Virus record (IMG/VR): IMGVR_UViG_3300042341_001047
Source: a virus
DNA length: 64,000 bases
Strand: one strand, 5' to 3'
Notes under the pieces: model-generated
Database searches by the model: none
What the model was told of the DNA's origin: nothing
What the model saw: only the letters and a program-made list of their open reading frames with translations
Shown: piece by piece, positions 12,174 through 55,053 of the stretch
How the letters are laid out: each line of letters starts with the position of its first letter
Position numbering within the stretch: position 1 is the stretch's first letter
Program-made: the position numbers and the translations under genes

Positions 12174-12794
12174 TTATTTATTAAAAGTTTTTTCATAAAC
12201 ATTCCTAATGGCTTTTATACCATTTGGTTGAATCTCTCTTGTTCCTATACCCGCAAAATTTTGAGAAGTTATAGAAGGAACATCTTTCATTTCAACAAAT
12301 TGAAGAGTTGAGTAAGACCATCTAAACCACTTATCTCTAACTTGATCAAATACAAATACTTCTTTTTTATTATTTATACCCATCATTACTGCATATCCGG
12401 TACCACCATCGACAATATCAAATTCACCTTTATTGTAATATCCTTTTGAATTTTTGTGACCAGATTTAATAATTGTGCTAATTGCAAATATTTGATCCGA
12501 GTATTTCACTTGAGACCAATTACGAGCTAGCAAATTCATATACTTATGAATTCCATATCTATTTAGAAACTTATTTGCTTTATTAACTTCAATAACACCT
12601 TCATTATAATCATCATCTGAAATTTCAACTTTATTAGGTGATGTGTGTTTAGGTGTTTTATGAGAGTAGGCTCTGGTAGTAACATCATAGGTAACTCCTT
12701 CGTTTTCCCAGACGGTATCCGCTCCGACTGCACCACCAGAATGACAAACTACTTTTGTCAAGTCAATGGGTTTTTTATCAAAAATATCAATCAT
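12174..12794 (-). CDS. SLOG/DprA-like nucleotide-binding protein
   Basis: HSGGAVGAD, LARN, GGTGYAV, FAGIGTR. Confidence 0.7.
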   Translation of the reverse strand: MIDIFDKKPIDLTKVVCHSGGAVGADTVWENEGVTYDVTTRAYSHKTPKHTSPNKVEISDDDYNEGVIEVNKANKFLNRYGIHKYMNLLARNWSQVKYSDQIFAISTIIKSGHKNSKGYYNKGEFDIVDGGTGYAVMMGINNKKEVFVFDQVRDKWFRWSYSTLQFVEMKDVPSITSQNFAGIGTREIQPNGIKAIRNVYEKTFNK

Positions 12795-13041
12795 TTAGTA
12801 TTTTGTTTATTAAAAATTCTCTCTTTATCGATAAATCCTTTTCAAAAAATAGATTTATCGAATTTTCTCCACTAAAAGAGCTATAGATATTCAATTTATA
12901 TTTACAATCTTGATAATGTTTATCTAAGTATTTAATTATTAAATATCTAGCATCATCTATATTGGTTACTTTATCACTATACGGAACATCAAAACTCTCC
13001 ACTAAGTTTTTATTAGTTTCTAAATAAATATTTATCATCAT
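12787..13041 (-). CDS. Hypothetical protein ending KREFLINKILND
   Basis: ORF track, operon overlap. Confidence 0.6.
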   Translation of the reverse strand: MMINIYLETNKNLVESFDVPYSDKVTNIDDARYLIIKYLDKHYQDCKYKLNIYSSFSGENSINLFFEKDLSIKREFLINKILND

Positions 13042-13904
13042 AGTTTTACCTCCATACCTTGAGTGTTCCAGATGGCCAATGCACCATCCATCCTAAAATA
13101 CAGGTCTCTTATATCAATCGGTTCATTAAAAATGTATTTTTTAAGACAAAGAAAAAATCTATTTCCATTACAACCAACCATTTCTTTATGTAAGATATTA
13201 TTACCTACATCAATATAAGAATTAATTCTAAAATTCTCAACTCTTTCTACCGTAAATATCTTAGTACTAAATACTAAATCGATTGTATCCAATATTTCTT
13301 TAATCTCTGAGAAATCATTAAATGAATAAATCACTTCATCGTTTTTAATACAAGCAATTTTTAATCCTAAATGATTATATTTATTTATAACATCTTCAAT
13401 AATAACACGTTGTGCTTTACCCTGTCTCTTTGGATTAATATTACCGAATATATATTGTCGGAATTGTTTAGAGTGGTTAAAAATCTCAGGGAAATCAAAT
13501 TTTGATAAGAAATCTTCATATGAGTTTCCCAATTCATTTAGGAAATCAGGATCATATTTTTTAAGAACCTTCCAGTTTGCTTTTTTAATATCTATAGATA
13601 TATACTTACAATCTTCTGAATATTCAAAGTTTTTAGTAACTGGATAATCAGGTATTAAATTATCATCTTGAAGCTCATTATAAGCTCTTGTATTTTTGAG
13701 AAAATCAATTATCTGATTTGATTTTTCAATTCTATATTCATAAAGATCACCATACTTTTCTTCAGCTTCTTCATAAAGTCTAATTAACTCTTTAATATTT
13801 TTCCACTTCTCCAACTTAGAGAATTGTTCTATATAATAGTCAAAGTGTTCGTATTCGGGAACACTTATGTCCATTAATTTACAAAATCCTTTTACGTCTT
13901 TCAT
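13038..13904 (-). CDS. Conserved hypothetical protein, possibly degenerate polymerase palm
   Basis: ISIDIKKAN and KNDEV segments resemble polymerase motifs A and C; weak. Confidence 0.4.
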   Translation of the reverse strand: MKDVKGFCKLMDISVPEYEHFDYYIEQFSKLEKWKNIKELIRLYEEAEEKYGDLYEYRIEKSNQIIDFLKNTRAYNELQDDNLIPDYPVTKNFEYSEDCKYISIDIKKANWKVLKKYDPDFLNELGNSYEDFLSKFDFPEIFNHSKQFRQYIFGNINPKRQGKAQRVIIEDVINKYNHLGLKIACIKNDEVIYSFNDFSEIKEILDTIDLVFSTKIFTVERVENFRINSYIDVGNNILHKEMVGCNGNRFFLCLKKYIFNEPIDIRDLYFRMDGALAIWNTQGMEVKL

Positions 13905-13905
13905 A

Positions 13906-14235
13906 TTAGTTTAATACCTGTTTTATTTTTTCGTCTCTTTGATAAGCTTTATAATCTTCTCCTTCCGTGATAAAATATTCTGACATTTCTTGTTCAGTAA
14001 AATAATACCACTTTATTCTCTCACTATATGGTAAATTCCACCAATCTTTTCTACCAGAATGATATCCATGTTGATCATCTTCAACACAAAAACCATATCC
14101 TTTTCTACCATTAACTTCTGGATCAGCATTAAATTCTAAATTACCTCTTCCTTTGATATCATAATGACTACCAACTTTAATAGTTTTGTATTCTTTGACA
14201 CAAACAACTCTTTGACAATCCCATCTATCTTCCAT
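13906..14235 (-). CDS. Hypothetical protein ending RDEKIKQVLN
   Basis: ORF track. Confidence 0.6.
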   Translation of the reverse strand: MEDRWDCQRVVCVKEYKTIKVGSHYDIKGRGNLEFNADPEVNGRKGYGFCVEDDQHGYHSGRKDWWNLPYSERIKWYYFTEQEMSEYFITEGEDYKAYQRDEKIKQVLN

Positions 14236-14392
14236 CGAATAGTTTTTTAATTTTATATTTTCTAGCTTTTATAACATTAACTCTACATCTTAACTTGGAT
14301 AACTCTGAGTAAACATCAGTTACATTCATAGCACCGTAGCTCGAGTTCAAAATCATCTTGTAATAAGCTAATTTACTTTCTAATTCTCTCAT
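14225..14392 (-). CDS. Unannotated 55-aa protein with PolB motif-B-like KMILNSSYG and RKYKIKKLF tail
   Basis: Manual translation MRELESKLAYYKMILNSSYGAMNVTDVYSELSKLRCRVNVIKARKYKIKKLFDGR; ATGA overlap with upstream gene and overlap with downstream start. Confidence 0.7.
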   Translation of the reverse strand: MRELESKLAYYKMILNSSYGAMNVTDVYSELSKLRCRVNVIKARKYKIKKLFDGR

Positions 14393-14994
14393 AAATCTCC
14401 GTGATGGTCAATTTTTTCCATAGTTCTCTTTGACATTATATTAGTAATATCACCTATGTTAAAAGGTCGATATTCACCAAACATTTTATAAGCAACATCA
14501 ACTCCAACGTCCATAGAACGACCAAAGTCTGGGATAGAACCGTGTGAGTGACCATAAAGATGTATAACACCTTTGTGACTACCTAACCAAACTCGATGTG
14601 AGTAGTGAGAAAGGAATAGTTTTGTTTTACCAATATCTAAAGTTAAAACATCTTGAACTGATGAAAAAAGTTCAATTGGGTTAAATGATGTATCGTGATA
14701 TTTTATTTCTTTGTCTACTATGTGTTGGTCATGATTTCCTAAAATAAGATGTACATTTTTACAAACAATGTAGTTTCTAAATTGAAGTATGTTATGAACT
14801 CCACCGAAACTCCAATCACCTAAGTGATAAAGAATATCATCTTCTTTAACATATTTGTTGATACCATCAACAAGTGCCATATTCATTTCATGTACAGAGT
14901 TAAAATCTCTATATCCTGAAGACCAGTTCGATATTTTGGGACCAGCTATGTTAGTGTGTCCAAAGTGTGTGTCTGATGTAAACCATATATTCAT
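14389..14994 (-). CDS. Calcineurin-like metallophosphoesterase
   Basis: SDTHFGH, LGD, GNHD, HLYGHSH. Confidence 0.9.
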   Translation of the reverse strand: MNIWFTSDTHFGHTNIAGPKISNWSSGYRDFNSVHEMNMALVDGINKYVKEDDILYHLGDWSFGGVHNILQFRNYIVCKNVHLILGNHDQHIVDKEIKYHDTSFNPIELFSSVQDVLTLDIGKTKLFLSHYSHRVWLGSHKGVIHLYGHSHGSIPDFGRSMDVGVDVAYKMFGEYRPFNIGDITNIMSKRTMEKIDHHGDL

Positions 14995-15063
14995 AATACA
15001 AATATAAGGATTTAAAATAAAAAAACCACTCTATTGAATGGTTTTCTAATTTTTTTCAGATTT

Positions 15064-15828
15064 TTATTTTTTGACTTCTTTCCAAAAGTGCTTTTGTCCA
15101 GGTTCTTCTTGAATTTTCCCATCTTTAAATGCAAACTTTTTCAAACCACCAACTGGTATTTTATATGAATCGGACTGATTAGGTGGGGTAGGTGGAGTAT
15201 CAGTAGAATCTTTGAATCTACCAGTAAACTTATCATTTTCAGGTCTATAATAACCAACAGCCGCACTATCAGTACCATCATATCCAAAAAATTCAAGAAT
15301 CTTAGTTAATAACCAACTAACCACAAACGATCCTATCCAATATAAAGCAGCAATAGAACCACTACCATCTGTCATAAATAATCCTGTAACAAATGCCGGT
15401 AATCCAAACCAACCAGCAATATTCAATCCGAATAAATATTTAAGAGTTGCCAATATTTTTACTATAATGTTTTCACCTTCTACTGTATGCCACTCATCAC
15501 TTTGACTCTCTTTAACAGGACTTAGTTTAAGAGCCTCTATCATTTTAGAAACATTTTTTGAATCTAACTCTGGAGTAATTGTTCCAAAATTTTTCATCAT
15601 AAAGTCATATATTTTCTTTAATGATTCTTTACTTGGTTTTATAGAATTCAAAATATCATGACCTTTATCTTCTAACCATTTCTCAACAGGTTTAACCATT
15701 GTGTTTTTTATTTCATTATAGATTGATTTATAAACATCAGCTGCTCCAGCGATTGGATCAACTGGCATAAACATCATGTCCATAGTTTCATTTACATTGA
15801 AAGATTCAAATTTTTTAATATATTTCAT
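15064..15828 (-). CDS. Membrane-hairpin protein, PVDPI paralog family, CTS-like N-terminus
   Basis: MKYIKKFESFNVNETMDMMFMPVDPI; two hydrophobic segments; paralog of 56682 and 62210. Confidence 0.7.
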   Translation of the reverse strand: MKYIKKFESFNVNETMDMMFMPVDPIAGAADVYKSIYNEIKNTMVKPVEKWLEDKGHDILNSIKPSKESLKKIYDFMMKNFGTITPELDSKNVSKMIEALKLSPVKESQSDEWHTVEGENIIVKILATLKYLFGLNIAGWFGLPAFVTGLFMTDGSGSIAALYWIGSFVVSWLLTKILEFFGYDGTDSAAVGYYRPENDKFTGRFKDSTDTPPTPPNQSDSYKIPVGGLKKFAFKDGKIQEEPGQKHFWKEVKK

Positions 15829-15929: not shown

Positions 15930-16802
15930 ATGAAAAATCTATCATCTCAAGTTGGTCAAACTCCACTAATTCAAATATCAGAAAGAATCTTTGCAAAATT
16001 CGAAGGTCAAAATCCAAGTGGATCCATAAAAGATAGAATGGCATCTTTTATAATCAATGATGCTGAAAAAAACAATCTTATTAAAAAAGGTGATACAATT
16101 ATTGAAGCAACATCAGGAAACTCTGGAATTGCTTTTGCTTTCTTAGCAGCAGAAAGAGGTTATAAATGTATTATTATTATGCCTTCTAATATGAGCGAAG
16201 AACGAAAACAAATGTTAAGAATTTATGGAGCTGAACTTATTGAAGTTCCTGATGGTAAATTTGATGATGCGATTGCTTTAAGAGATAAAATGGCTAAAGA
16301 AAATGGATACTTTAACCCTAATCAATTTCATAACCCTCTAAATATACAAGCTCATTATGAAGGAACGGGTGTTGAGATTCTACACCAACACACAGAGAAA
16401 ATTGCTGCTTTTGTTGATGGAACAGGAACTGGAGGTACTCTTATGGGTATCTCTCGTCTTTTAAAGATGTATCATCCATGGATGAAAGTTGTTGCTGTTG
16501 AGCCAGCAGAATCTCCAGTTATGTCAGGTGGTCAACCAGGAATTCACGGAATTCAAGGAATTGGCGATGGTTCTAAATTCTTAGTTAATCTAAAAGAAGT
16601 TGATGATATTATGATTATATCAACTGAAGAAGCTAAAGAAAGAGCTAGAAGACTAGCTAAAGAACAAGGTTTATTTGTTGGTATCAGTTCGGGAGCTAAC
16701 ATTTTAGCATCAGAAAGGTTATTAGAAAAGTACCCGGATATGGAAGGTAATATCATTACTATATTATGTGATAGAGGAGAAAGATATCTTTCTTGTTTAT
16801 AA
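15930..16802 (+). CDS. cysK: Cysteine synthase (O-acetylserine sulfhydrylase, PLP-dependent)
   Basis: NPSGSIKDR, EATSGNSG, GTGGT, HGIQGIG, GISSGA, DRGERYLS. Confidence 0.95.
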   Translation: MKNLSSQVGQTPLIQISERIFAKFEGQNPSGSIKDRMASFIINDAEKNNLIKKGDTIIEATSGNSGIAFAFLAAERGYKCIIIMPSNMSEERKQMLRIYGAELIEVPDGKFDDAIALRDKMAKENGYFNPNQFHNPLNIQAHYEGTGVEILHQHTEKIAAFVDGTGTGGTLMGISRLLKMYHPWMKVVAVEPAESPVMSGGQPGIHGIQGIGDGSKFLVNLKEVDDIMIISTEEAKERARRLAKEQGLFVGISSGANILASERLLEKYPDMEGNIITILCDRGERYLSCL

Positions 16803-19680: not shown

Positions 19681-20373
19681 TTAACTGGTCTTTTTTGTTT
19701 TAATATAGTTTGATAAGTTCTCCCAAAGTATTTTATAAATATCATCAAATTGATTATACCTAATTCTAATTGAATCAATATAATTATCTTCACAATAATC
19801 TTTTTTTATTTTATCTACTTCTTTAATTAAATAATGTTCTTTACTTAAATACTCAATTGTAGTTCTTCTATTAGGTAAATAAAATTGAAATATATTATTA
19901 TCTAAGTTTTTATTTTCATCATATTCAATTTGATACTTATCTAAAAACTCTTTAATATCATTTATTCCTTCTTTATCACAATTATTGATCTTATCTCTTA
20001 ATAGACTTTCCTCGTTATTTCTAAATTCAGGAGCAAGGCCTAGTAAGTGTGAGCTAGACCTTTGTTCGTAAACAATACCATTATAAATTATCTTAATATT
20101 ATTAAGAGCACCAGTATATTCAGTTAAAGAGTAATCATATTTGTCTTTCCAAATATTTTTGGCTTCTAAAATAAAATCTTCAGTTGTCTTTCTTTTAATA
20201 GACTTCTCAGGACATCTACCCATCAAATGTTTAGAGATGGATTGAGTATAAATCTCACCATTATATTCAATTTCTATTCTATCATTTAAGGTAACCTTAT
20301 CTGATAAATTTAAATAATTGTATTTATAACCGTGTGTATTTCTAGCTTTTTCTAAAAATTCTAACCTTTTCAT
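19681..20373 (-). CDS. Putative homing endonuclease (DUF723-like repeats plus degenerate Vsr/DUF559-like domain)
   Basis: FLEKARNTHGYKYNY / FILEAKNIWKDKYDY repeats; FYLP..IEY..H..D..K..YC...IRIRY C-terminus. Confidence 0.6.
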   Translation of the reverse strand: MKRLEFLEKARNTHGYKYNYLNLSDKVTLNDRIEIEYNGEIYTQSISKHLMGRCPEKSIKRKTTEDFILEAKNIWKDKYDYSLTEYTGALNNIKIIYNGIVYEQRSSSHLLGLAPEFRNNEESLLRDKINNCDKEGINDIKEFLDKYQIEYDENKNLDNNIFQFYLPNRRTTIEYLSKEHYLIKEVDKIKKDYCEDNYIDSIRIRYNQFDDIYKILWENLSNYIKTKKTS

Positions 20374-52893: not shown

Positions 52894-53527
52894 AAACTAC
52901 AATGAATATATAAATCAAAATGTTCTTTACATATTTGATTTTGACGACACGCTTGTTAATACACCAAGCTACGAGGAACTCGCTATCCAATTTTTAAAAG
53001 AAGACGTAACAATAAAAGATTTATTAAATCAATCGGTTAATAGAATAGGCGTTACATTAAATGATCTAAAGTGGCAAGACGGAAGAATCTATGTAATGGA
53101 TATCAATAAACAACTAAAAGAATTTGGCAACTGGGTAAGAAAAGGTGACAGAATGTATATGTTGTCTCCAAATTTATTTCACACATCTGATATAAGTTTA
53201 CCAAGTACATTAAAAAGTCTTTCTAAGTTATACAAATCAGTTGATAATAAATGTATAGTAACAGCTAGAGAGGAATCCATAAGAGATAAAATAACAAATA
53301 AATTATTAGAACTTGGACTAGAAATTCCTAAATATGGTTTACATATGGCACCAGTTGGTACTAAAAATGCAGGACATTGGAAAGGTGAGAAGATAGTTGA
53401 AATACTAAAAGAAACAGGATTCCAAAAAGCTATCTTCTATGATGATAATTCTAAATATATTAGAAAAGCAACTAAAGTAGTAAGAGAAAAGATGCCAAAT
53501 ATACAATTTGAACCAGTTAAGGTTTAA
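52880..53527 (+). CDS. HAD phosphatase (Swiss-Army-Knife RNA-repair HAD-like) with CTS-like N-terminus
   Basis: FDFDDTLVNTP, IVTAR, K, FYDD; MTKIKNYNEYIN. Confidence 0.7.
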   Translation: MTKIKNYNEYINQNVLYIFDFDDTLVNTPSYEELAIQFLKEDVTIKDLLNQSVNRIGVTLNDLKWQDGRIYVMDINKQLKEFGNWVRKGDRMYMLSPNLFHTSDISLPSTLKSLSKLYKSVDNKCIVTAREESIRDKITNKLLELGLEIPKYGLHMAPVGTKNAGHWKGEKIVEILKETGFQKAIFYDDNSKYIRKATKVVREKMPNIQFEPVKV

Positions 53528-55053
53528 TATACTTCAGCTTCTAATCTTTTAATTTCATCCATTACTTCTTTTAACTCTTCTTTCTTATCCATCATCACTT
53601 TCTTAGCTTTCTTTCTATCAGCATAAACATCTTCCAACATAATCAACGTAGGTGACTTTCTTTTCTCAAATACAACACCATTGACACATAAAACATGTTG
53701 AGATAAATCTATAGGTCTTCCATTCGTACATTTAGATTTATCTTTCTCATCTTGAACTCCGACAAATGTTTCAGGAGCAATAAAGAATTGTCTTTGAGTA
53801 GTCGGATAAAGAGAAGCAAAGTCATAAGTAACACACCACTGATTCATACCAACCACCGGATCCTTAACCCAACCACCAGCAATTGTAGATTCAGCATCTC
53901 CTTTCTCATCTCTAAAAAGAACAATGTTTTCCATATCACGGAATTTGTTTCTTAAAACTCCTTCTGTAATAGCCAATGAGCCTAAAGCGTTATTCATTTG
54001 AGAGACAACATCAACAATTCTAATTTGAGCTAATGAAGAAATCGCATAAATAATTGAAATATAGTTACGAGCGTCGTGTATCTTCTGAACTAGAACACTA
54101 TCGACAGCGTTATAATACATAAAGGTTTCAAAGTCATCTTCATATAACTTTTGTAATGAACCGTTATACTTAATCTTTTCAACCCCAACTAACTTATTAG
54201 AAACGAAATCTAAAGATGATGATTCTTTTACTTTAATAGAAGTATCACAAATTTCATATAATTGCATATAATCGAAAATCATTCTATGAGCTGGTACCTC
54301 AAACTCAGTAGACCAAATCTTATTCATCTTTTTAGTTAAAGAAGAAACAGCTGGATCAATTTTATATTCTTTACCATTTACCCATTTAGAAATCTTTCTT
54401 GATCGGTTTACTAAATACAACCAGTCATATTGAAGGAAGTTCCATCCTGTTAGAATAGGCATCTTAGGAATCATCTTATAGAAGAAAGCATATAACATAT
54501 CAAATTCATCTTCATATTTGATATACTTGAATTTATAATCAGCTCCGAATTTTTCAAAATACTTGTTAGTATTATCCTTGATTCGTTGTTGCATATCTTC
54601 TGGCATTTCTTTAAGACCTAAAAGAATAATTTTGTCGTCATAAACAATAGATATAGATAGAACTTGAGTTGAAGCTCCTTCTTTTGTTACATTACCATTA
54701 ACGTCTTTAATATCAGCCGCTTCTGGGAAACCGTCAACGATTTCTGTTTCAATATCTATAAAGTAAATATTAGGTAAGTTAAACTCAAATATCTCATTCT
54801 TCTCAGATTCTGGAAGTGAGTCTAGGAACTCATAAATAGCATATCTATCTGGATGATTTACTTCTATCTGTTTAACGGATTTACCATCCCAAGATTTGAA
54901 TTCTGGATGTTTTTGAGGATCGTTATCTTCACAAGCCACATATTTCATTGGATCTTCCCAATTGTAATATTTTAGTTTTATATCACCAGACTTATCAACA
55001 TAACTTACTACTAGTTTTTTACTATTTGTTAGGTATTGTGTTTCTACGAGCAT
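53524..55053 (-). CDS. Family B DNA polymerase, N-terminal half (exonuclease plus motif A) of a split enzyme
   Basis: DIETE, GWNFLQYD, YNAVD, GGWV, YDFASLYP; stops after RKKAKK, lacking motifs B and C. Confidence 0.88.
   Translation of the reverse strand: MLVETQYLTNSKKLVVSYVDKSGDIKLKYYNWEDPMKYVACEDNDPQKHPEFKSWDGKSVKQIEVNHPDRYAIYEFLDSLPESEKNEIFEFNLPNIYFIDIETEIVDGFPEAADIKDVNGNVTKEGASTQVLSISIVYDDKIILLGLKEMPEDMQQRIKDNTNKYFEKFGADYKFKYIKYEDEFDMLYAFFYKMIPKMPILTGWNFLQYDWLYLVNRSRKISKWVNGKEYKIDPAVSSLTKKMNKIWSTEFEVPAHRMIFDYMQLYEICDTSIKVKESSSLDFVSNKLVGVEKIKYNGSLQKLYEDDFETFMYYNAVDSVLVQKIHDARNYISIIYAISSLAQIRIVDVVSQMNNALGSLAITEGVLRNKFRDMENIVLFRDEKGDAESTIAGGWVKDPVVGMNQWCVTYDFASLYPTTQRQFFIAPETFVGVQDEKDKSKCTNGRPIDLSQHVLCVNGVVFEKRKSPTLIMLEDVYADRKKAKKVMMDKKEELKEVMDEIKRLEAEVY

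Follow-up and report, generated by a model that had tools for sequence, protein, structure and literature searches.

A conserved micro-protein of freshwater huge phages with a DNA polymerase motif B-like core and a shared C-terminal tag

The window analysed here, a stretch of 64,000 nucleotides corresponding to bases 31792-95791 of a 175,660-bp IMG/VR virus record (IMGVR_UViG_3300042341_001047, G000; ~29% G+C), contains on its minus strand a small open reading frame (ORF), the micro-ORF. Its product, the micro-protein, carries a core that resembles motif B of family-B DNA polymerases (PolB) and, near its C-terminus, a tag found in other small proteins of the same phages. The ORF is present where the initial annotation placed it, with KMILNSSYGA as residues 12-21 of 55 amino acids (aa), and it overlaps both neighbours, sharing 4 nt (ATGA) with the stop of an upstream phosphoesterase gene and its final 11 nt with the start of a downstream 109-aa ORF. 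The terminal stretch ARKYKIKKLF described in that annotation is likewise there, but the actual tail is three residues longer and reads ARKYKIKKLFDGR. The argument turns on the following features.

14225..14392, minus strand: micro-ORF encoding the micro-protein, 55 aa, ATG to TAG
14333..14359, minus strand: motif-B-like core of predicted helix 1, K-M-I-L-N-S-S-Y-G, residues 12-20 (family conservation, hhalign, rank in a hidden Markov model (HMM) search)
14237..14263, minus strand: shared C-terminal tag, R-K-Y-K-I-K-K-L-F, residues 44-52 (family conservation; tag profile matches elsewhere)
14389..14994, minus strand: calcineurin-like phosphoesterase gene (phrog_547, E=8.6e-43; Pfam Metallophos_2)
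53524..55053, minus strand: N-terminal half of PolB (N-half), 509 aa, with exonuclease, motif A and first fingers helix

We examined 12 related loci, the window among them. A 52-62-aa ORF lies behind the phosphoesterase gene in nine of these (window, L004, L010, L011, L014, L015, L017, L104 and L105) and is lacking in three (L003, L012 and L013); four of five large relatives carry a single full-length copy, and the fifth, LR756502.1 (642,428 bp), carries none. The ratio of non-synonymous to synonymous substitution rates (dN/dS, Nei-Gojobori), a check proposed in the initial annotation, ranges from 0.12 to 0.67 for the micro-ORF and is below 1 in all 14 computable pairs (15 pairs, one saturated), values that are noisy with only ~31 synonymous sites. 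For comparison, it is 0.04-0.08 for the phosphoesterase, 0.07-0.11 for a nearby 288-aa ORF and 0.06-0.39 for the 109-aa ORF. Selection acts on the protein, since invariant residues are encoded by synonymous codons (AAG/AAA, AAC/AAT, TAC/TAT and, for serine, TCG/TCT/TCA/AGC); frame, position and motif are kept across sequences down to ~30% identity. The micro-ORF is a real conserved gene. It is also an accessory, dispensable one, fast-evolving outside its two conserved modules as is typical for phage accessory genes, and its absence from 3 of the 12 loci, as well as from a complete relative of 642 kb, speaks against its being obligatory for the split polymerase described below.

Searches with the 55-aa protein alone gave little: tblastn against 50,697 phage records returned only three Lactobacillus-phage matches at E=2, the search for related loci no relative, PHROGs only phrog_13625 at E=0.061, Pfam, NCBIfam and PADLOC no family (Pfam 0 at E<=10), and the ESM Atlas search no usable match; the identical 55-aa protein is already present in the ESM Atlas. 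When 1.84 billion cluster representatives (clusters at 50% identity) were searched with a six-member profile, 58 of them matched at E<=1e-3 and 15 at E<=1e-10. These are proteins of 36-80 aa in 57 of the 58 cases, with no polymerase or long protein apart from one 388-aa repeat protein, which is regarded as spurious. A Pfam RNA_pol match of the family member at L014 (E=0.0033, below the cut-off) was treated as chance. Literature searches turned up no account of mini-proteins that join a polymerase motif to a tag, or of a PolB split in the way set out below; the family is undescribed and is spread through freshwater huge phages.

At least 20 metagenome runs of lake or freshwater origin contain this DNA. 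In four metatranscriptome runs, parts of 13000-15100 are covered, at 88-99% likeness, by short contigs only; the 5' end of the micro-ORF is reached by one piece of 51 nt, no RNA contig spans the micro-ORF, and one contig joint stems from a relative without the 109-aa ORF. These RNA contigs neither show nor exclude transcription, and could derive from DNA in RNA libraries. The lack of a spanning RNA contig, the small size of the frame and the lack of library family matches would fit a chance open frame between two real genes, a reading that we consider next to impossible. As far as sequence data go, it is already refuted by the conservation of frame, position and motif, by the synonymous substitutions at invariant residues and by the dN/dS values below 1.

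The fingers helix of family-B DNA polymerases (for example, T4/RB69 gp43) carries motif B, KxxxNSxYG. In an alignment of the 58 family sequences, the corresponding residues of the micro-protein are the most conserved positions of predicted helix 1: K12 in 55 of 57 sequences, N16 in 56 of 57, S17 in 54 of 57 (never G), Y19 in 56 of 57 and G20 in 47 of 57, with serine replacing G20 in 8 of 57. The strongest conservation elsewhere falls on the R-K-x-K-I of the tag (R44, 56/57; K45, 48/57; K47, 52/57; I48, 56/58), and the loop between the two modules varies in length and sequence. Most members have Leu or Ile at positions 4, 8, 11 and 15 (L4, L8, L11 and L15 in the window protein), and positions 34, 38, 41, 48 and 51 are Ile or Leu. 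From this residue pattern, the micro-protein is most likely a hairpin of two amphipathic helices packing on each other, in which K12, N16 and Y19 (i, i+4, i+7) would form a stripe beside the hydrophobic seam, together with S17 and G20. The conserved motif-B residues are those that face the nucleotide in family-B polymerases, not merely packing residues, so that recognition by a partner fits the pattern better than simple docking.

Directed comparisons with polymerases point the same way. When six family members were aligned by hhalign with nine PolB C-terminal halves (C-halves) of the same clade, motif B alone aligned, over 13 columns with 54% identity (P=0.0023, probability 12%); the alignment with the C-half suggested in the initial annotation is confined to the motif. 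With all 58 members against 13 diverse PolBs, again motif B alone aligned, over 14 columns (P=5.2e-5, probability 67%). This diverse set consists of five clade sequences plus Lak-B6, DLP_6, S-SM2, VH7D, Cr30, S-PM2, Se-J and RAS14; it was built from these eight named phage records, the search for C-half homologues having given only relatives of at least 74% identity. After shuffling of the columns of the family alignment, 3 of 300 shuffles reached the observed score of 31.0 (null mean 10.05, 99th percentile 16.8). A 34-column HMM of PolB motif B ranked the micro-ORF first (E=0.0019, against 0.04 for the next) among the 1,937 six-frame stop-to-stop segments of at least 30 aa in the whole record, in which the pattern K...NS.YG occurs once, in the micro-ORF. 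The PolB of Stenotrophomonas phage RAS14 reads YKILLNSSYGALGN where the window protein reads YKMILNSSYGAMN.

The record's own polymerase gene ends before this motif, as the initial annotation had noted: the 53524..55053 product matches Pfam DNA_pol_B over positions 20-151 of 453 and phrog_262 over positions 109-503 of 856 (end ~505), and the profile matches stop there. Scans of the 175,660-bp record with phrog_262 and PF00136 did not find the C-terminal half. Two uncultured huge phages, LR745206.1 (634,780 bp) and LR756502.1, are the closest relatives; their N-halves are 84% identical to that of the window. Both have a 474-aa C-half on the opposite strand, ~101 and 132 kb from the N-half, covering phrog_262 positions 483-839 and 492-839. 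In LR745206.1, the C-half lies at 131 kb, the N-half at 233 kb and the micro-ORF at 266 kb; this spacing, applied to the record, places the C-half ~12 kb beyond its end. The subunit that the initial annotation took to be missing is therefore probably simply off the end of the record. The completeness of the record is given as 85% (CheckV-type), yet the relatives measure 635-642 kb and the C-half is lacking; the record probably covers between a quarter and a third of the genome.

The C-half begins 34 residues before motif B, where it reads A-L-K-L-V-L-N-G-S-Y-G-A-F; all nine clade C-halves compared have this N, G and S, and YGDTDS or YADTDS follows ~70 residues later. A database search with the C-half gave 658 matches, in ~475-aa forms. 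The proposal that the micro-protein mimics the start of the second subunit does not hold up against this arrangement. The micro-protein ends 35 residues after motif B and has no motif C (DTDS), palm or thumb. Nor was it copied recently from the cognate gene, since its family reads N-S where the cognate C-half reads N-G. The N-S matches the PolBs of other phages. At the DNA level, a hand count found 15 of 33 bases identical between the motif codons of the micro-ORF and those of the C-half at L023. As judged from these alignments, the micro-protein resembles a generic PolB motif B over 13-14 residues, not the start of the partner subunit. As a separate observation, the PolB of Prevotella phage Lak-B6 (L065, MK250025.1) stops and begins again with a fresh Met ~40 residues before motif B, with N-half and C-half matches ~10 kb apart; the Lak megaphage PolB thus looks to be split at the same point, at the tip of the fingers.

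The second module is shared much more widely. Among the 211 ORFs called in the record by a crude greedy procedure, 14, the micro-ORF among them, have the tag R-x-x-K-[IL]-x-x-[ILVF] ending no more than six residues from the C-terminus; in the micro-protein, RKYKIKKL ends four residues before the stop. The motif occurs 30 times in all 55,770 aa, and 14 of these 30 occurrences are C-terminal. Because the codons of the tag and its distance to the stop vary, we read it as a peptide motif, not a DNA motif. The tag half of the family profile (positions 24-56) also matches, without the other half, further small ORFs of the relatives (E per genome 2.5e-4 to 0.015), and since the N-terminal parts of those ORFs are unrelated, the micro-protein is modular. 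An open scan of LR756502.1 with phrog_262 returned, beside the two polymerase halves, a further short ORF (E=5.6e-4).

L009:1489-1638 (LR756502.1, ~523.5 kb): motif-A-plus-tag ORF, 49 aa

This ORF reads D-Y-T-S-L-Y, which is PolB motif A, followed by the tag as R-R-I-A-K-I-K-R-I-L, and it matches Pfam DNA_pol_B positions 58-91 with E=1.3e-4 and 21.3 bits (cut-off 23). It may be young. It nonetheless shows that fragments of the polymerase joined to the tag do arise in this clade. A suspected motif-C counterpart, a tagged 92-aa ORF 12 kb before the window (G000 19780-20058) in which FTDTDD precedes the tag (FTDTDD-RFKKIEFIL), was rejected: conservation among its 16 relatives extends along the full length, and the DTD varies between them (FTDLDN, FTGTDN and FTDTND forms occur).

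We propose, tentatively and with a little less than even confidence, that the micro-protein is a modular mimic in which a motif-B 'bait' helix is joined to a common 'address' helix. Helix 1 would present the invariant face of PolB motif B (the K12-N16-Y19 stripe with S17 and G20), and helix 2 would end in the basic R-K-x-K-I-x-x-[IL]-F tag common to many small proteins of the clade. The mini-protein would be co-translated with the upstream phosphoesterase and would bind whatever recognises the invariant motif-B face, candidate partners being the PolB N-half of its own phage, that of a rival phage, or a host factor sensing the polymerase; the tag would serve for docking on a partner common to all tagged proteins.

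Several points weigh against this proposal. The likeness spans 13-14 residues, with nothing beyond the motif. A PDB profile search finds no PolB, only one coiled-coil chimera at E=5.3; Pfam scans of seven family members give no PF00136 match; and no PolB is among the 58 library matches of the family profile. The phrog_262 and PF00136 scans of the whole record likewise report the PolB N-half and not the micro-ORF. The cognate polymerase has N-G in place of the family's N-S, the constant neighbour of the micro-ORF is a phosphoesterase and not a polymerase gene, the hairpin and its exposed face are read from the residue pattern, and the RNA contigs are equivocal as to transcription. The 49-aa motif-A ORF, for its part, is a singleton, with no relatives in IMG/VR or in a set of 5.8 billion proteins.

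The most serious alternative, which we nevertheless consider rather unlikely, is that the likeness to motif B is convergent or due to chance and that the micro-protein is a tagged small helical protein with an unrelated job, for example as a partner or regulator of the phosphoesterase. The failure of open searches to retrieve PolB and the shortness of the match would be expected in that case; moreover, K...NS.YG is a short pattern that was first found by eye, and serine at position 20 in 8 of 57 members departs from canonical motif B. On the other hand, the five defining residues stand at exactly the right spacing and are the top conserved positions; the directed tests (P=5e-5, 3 of 300 shuffles, first of 1,937 segments) weigh against convergence or chance, as does the motif-A-plus-tag ORF in the sister genome.

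The gene neighbourhood bears on the same question. Three further features, all on the minus strand, complete the syntenic block.

13906..14235, minus strand: 109-aa ORF ending in the tag (QRDEKIKQVLN), variable neighbour
13038..13904, minus strand: 288-aa ORF of unknown function, variable neighbour
12174..12794, minus strand: DprA-like gene (phrog_768), closing the block and present in all related loci listed

The order of the block is constant: phosphoesterase, micro-ORF, a variable set (109-aa, 288-aa and 84-86-aa ORFs) and the DprA-like gene. The phosphoesterase stands directly upstream, stop and start overlapping, in 9 of 9 loci having the micro-ORF, as a functional tie between the two would predict. 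It comes, however, in two types that are only 31% identical (window 14389-14994 compared with L010:1728-2336, L004:4448-5080 and L104:3054-3653), whereas the micro-proteins behind them are 64% identical, which argues for a positional link rather than co-evolution. This suggests mosaic exchange, with gene replacement by recombination at the stop/start overlap. Downstream, the 109-aa ORF is missing from L017 and L105 and the 288-aa ORF from L004, L014, L104 and L105, and the micro-ORF is retained where both kinds of neighbour are missing. The neighbours gave no significant homing endonuclease or defence match in Pfam, NCBIfam or PADLOC, only sub-threshold matches such as LAGLIDADG_WhiA (E=0.03) and CfrBI (E=0.066); PADLOC returned 0 families, and nothing ties the micro-ORF to a defence system.

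The 288-aa ORF was suspected of PolA-like motifs and then of being a nuclease, for which Pfam, NCBIfam, PADLOC and PDB gave no support; it is unrelated to the 251-aa ORF beside the C-half in LR745206.1. Residues 19-87 of its family match vimentin coil 1A/1B chains in PDB (E=2.5e-4), a match that takes in F-x-x-Y-I-D and G-D-L-Y-E and that could reflect either coiled-coil bias or a real intermediate-filament-like segment. On the other side of the phosphoesterase, a 290-aa ORF (window 15930-16802, plus strand), kept beside it in L004 and L105, looks by eye like a cysteine synthase dependent on pyridoxal phosphate and would be a possible auxiliary metabolic gene.

The polymerase C-half is itself a target of insertions. 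Among 46 IMG/VR loci with a C-half (L019-L064), 41 cover the motif-B region, several of which may be one phage sampled twice; 28 of the 41 are interrupted in or just before motif B (about locus positions 400-460), and 13 are uninterrupted. The inserts measure 36-48 nt, have a stop codon at or soon after their start and contain a G+C-rich hairpin. They occupy three sites, after Q-L-A-L, after K-L-V and after N-G-S-Y, and beyond each of them the reading frame continues with precisely the residues expected. The last codon ahead of the insert and the last one ahead of the resumed frame are synonymous at two of these sites (CTT...CTA, GTT...GTA), which is the arrangement of the T4 gene 60 bypass; no matching codon pair was found at the third. 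Motif B of the C-half is thus an insertion hotspot in this clade. The C-half ORFs of L053 and L056-L059, in addition, start with sequence ending HTFIANDILVHN, followed by S-L-F-V-S-F or T-D-S-I-F-V-S-F, and this stretch resembles the final part of an intein lodged in motif C.

These inserts raise the possibility, improbable in our view, that the micro-ORF is the remnant of the homology region of a selfish cassette aimed at PolB motif B, since domesticated or nearly neutral. The T4 mobA/gene 60 cassette provides the precedent, with an in-frame copy of the target region borne by the MobA element and a 50-nt bypass (Manning and Atkins, bioRxiv 10.1101/2022.08.31.505936); in the portions of that preprint consulted, such bypass elements concern topoisomerase genes only, and polymerase is never mentioned (0 occurrences). 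The stop-plus-hairpin inserts at motif B in 28 of 41 informative loci, the apparent inteins in motif C at some of them, the variability of the genes adjoining the micro-ORF, and the family's N-S, shared with the PolBs of other phages and not with the clade's own N-G, would all suit such an origin. Against it stand the lack of a significant homing-endonuclease neighbour, the unrelatedness of the 288-aa ORF to the ORF beside the C-half in LR745206.1, the persistence of the micro-ORF without its variable neighbours and the low DNA identity to the motif-B codons of the C-half (15 of 33 bases). The purifying selection that acts on both motif and tag, over 58 clusters with less than 50% identity, moreover argues for function.

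A different role suggested by the same inserts, that of a third, trans-acting polymerase piece supplying the motif-B helix when the C-half is interrupted, we regard as highly improbable. Many relatives do have a C-half broken in motif B, and on the contig of L014 and L037 the micro-ORF occurs together with an interrupted C-half. The micro-ORF also coexists with an uninterrupted C-half, however, in LR745206.1 and G007, and it is lacking in LR756502.1; the frame, furthermore, resumes exactly after the inserts, so that the C-half would keep its own motif B if the insert were bypassed. Because of its coexistence with uninterrupted C-halves, the mini-protein was rejected as a substitute for a broken motif B.

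The modular mimic remains our preferred reading, and it may be part of something wider. It is conceivable, though we hold it to be unlikely, that the tagged proteins include a dispersed set of 'bait plus common tag' proteins, in which each member shows an invariant motif of an essential phage protein and the tag docks all of them on one hub, as decoys for host sensors of these unmutable motifs or poisons for the split enzymes of rivals. The baits would be PolB motif B here and, with the same reserve, PolB motif A in the sister genome LR756502.1. Such a set would represent a strategy of counter-defence or competition without a described counterpart. If the motif-B helix is a bait, then phages would be turning the most conserved motifs of their enzymes, in miniature form, into tools. 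That would define a new class of small phage effectors and offer a way to get at the factors that recognise polymerase motifs during infection. On a cautious reading, too, the analysis adds a previously undescribed micro-protein family of 58 clusters at 50% identity, with two sharply conserved modules for which point-mutant tests are easily designed. The view of the polymerase is revised as well: two genes, 100-130 kb apart in complete relatives, encode the halves of this enzyme, and the C-half is a hotspot of stop-plus-hairpin inserts.

Compared with known systems, the micro-protein shares with the fingers helix of family-B polymerases the five motif-B residues at the same spacing, in a predicted helix with hydrophobic residues between them. 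In contrast to such a polymerase, it is a stand-alone protein of 55 aa without palm, motif C or thumb, and an unrelated basic tag helix would follow the motif. The C-half of its own phage clade likewise carries motif B near the N-terminus, but that protein starts 34 residues earlier, reads N-G and runs on into motif C and the thumb. MicroProteins and dominant-negative mimics, such as plant LITTLE ZIPPER and Id proteins, as well as phage protein mimics, offer a functional parallel: the micro-protein is similarly a small single module resembling one element of a large protein, and by analogy could titrate a partner. It differs in resembling one motif rather than a domain and in bearing a tag common to unrelated mini-proteins, for which we know of no counterpart. 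The T4 mobA/gene 60 cassette is a selfish element that interrupts an essential replication gene at a conserved position and brings with it a segment resembling its target, and the clade's C-half has its stop-plus-hairpin inserts at motif B; unlike that cassette, the micro-ORF lies at least ~100 kb from the C-half (in LR745206.1) and ~39 kb from the N-half (in the window), without a detectable nuclease neighbour and without a hairpin. The logic of a decoy resembles that of the Gol peptide of T4 gp23, which is sensed by the Lit protease, in that a short conserved peptide of a core protein is recognised by a host defence; we know of no sensor of PolB motif B. In concept, the micro-protein comes closest to microProtein-type mimics and to the target copies of homing cassettes.

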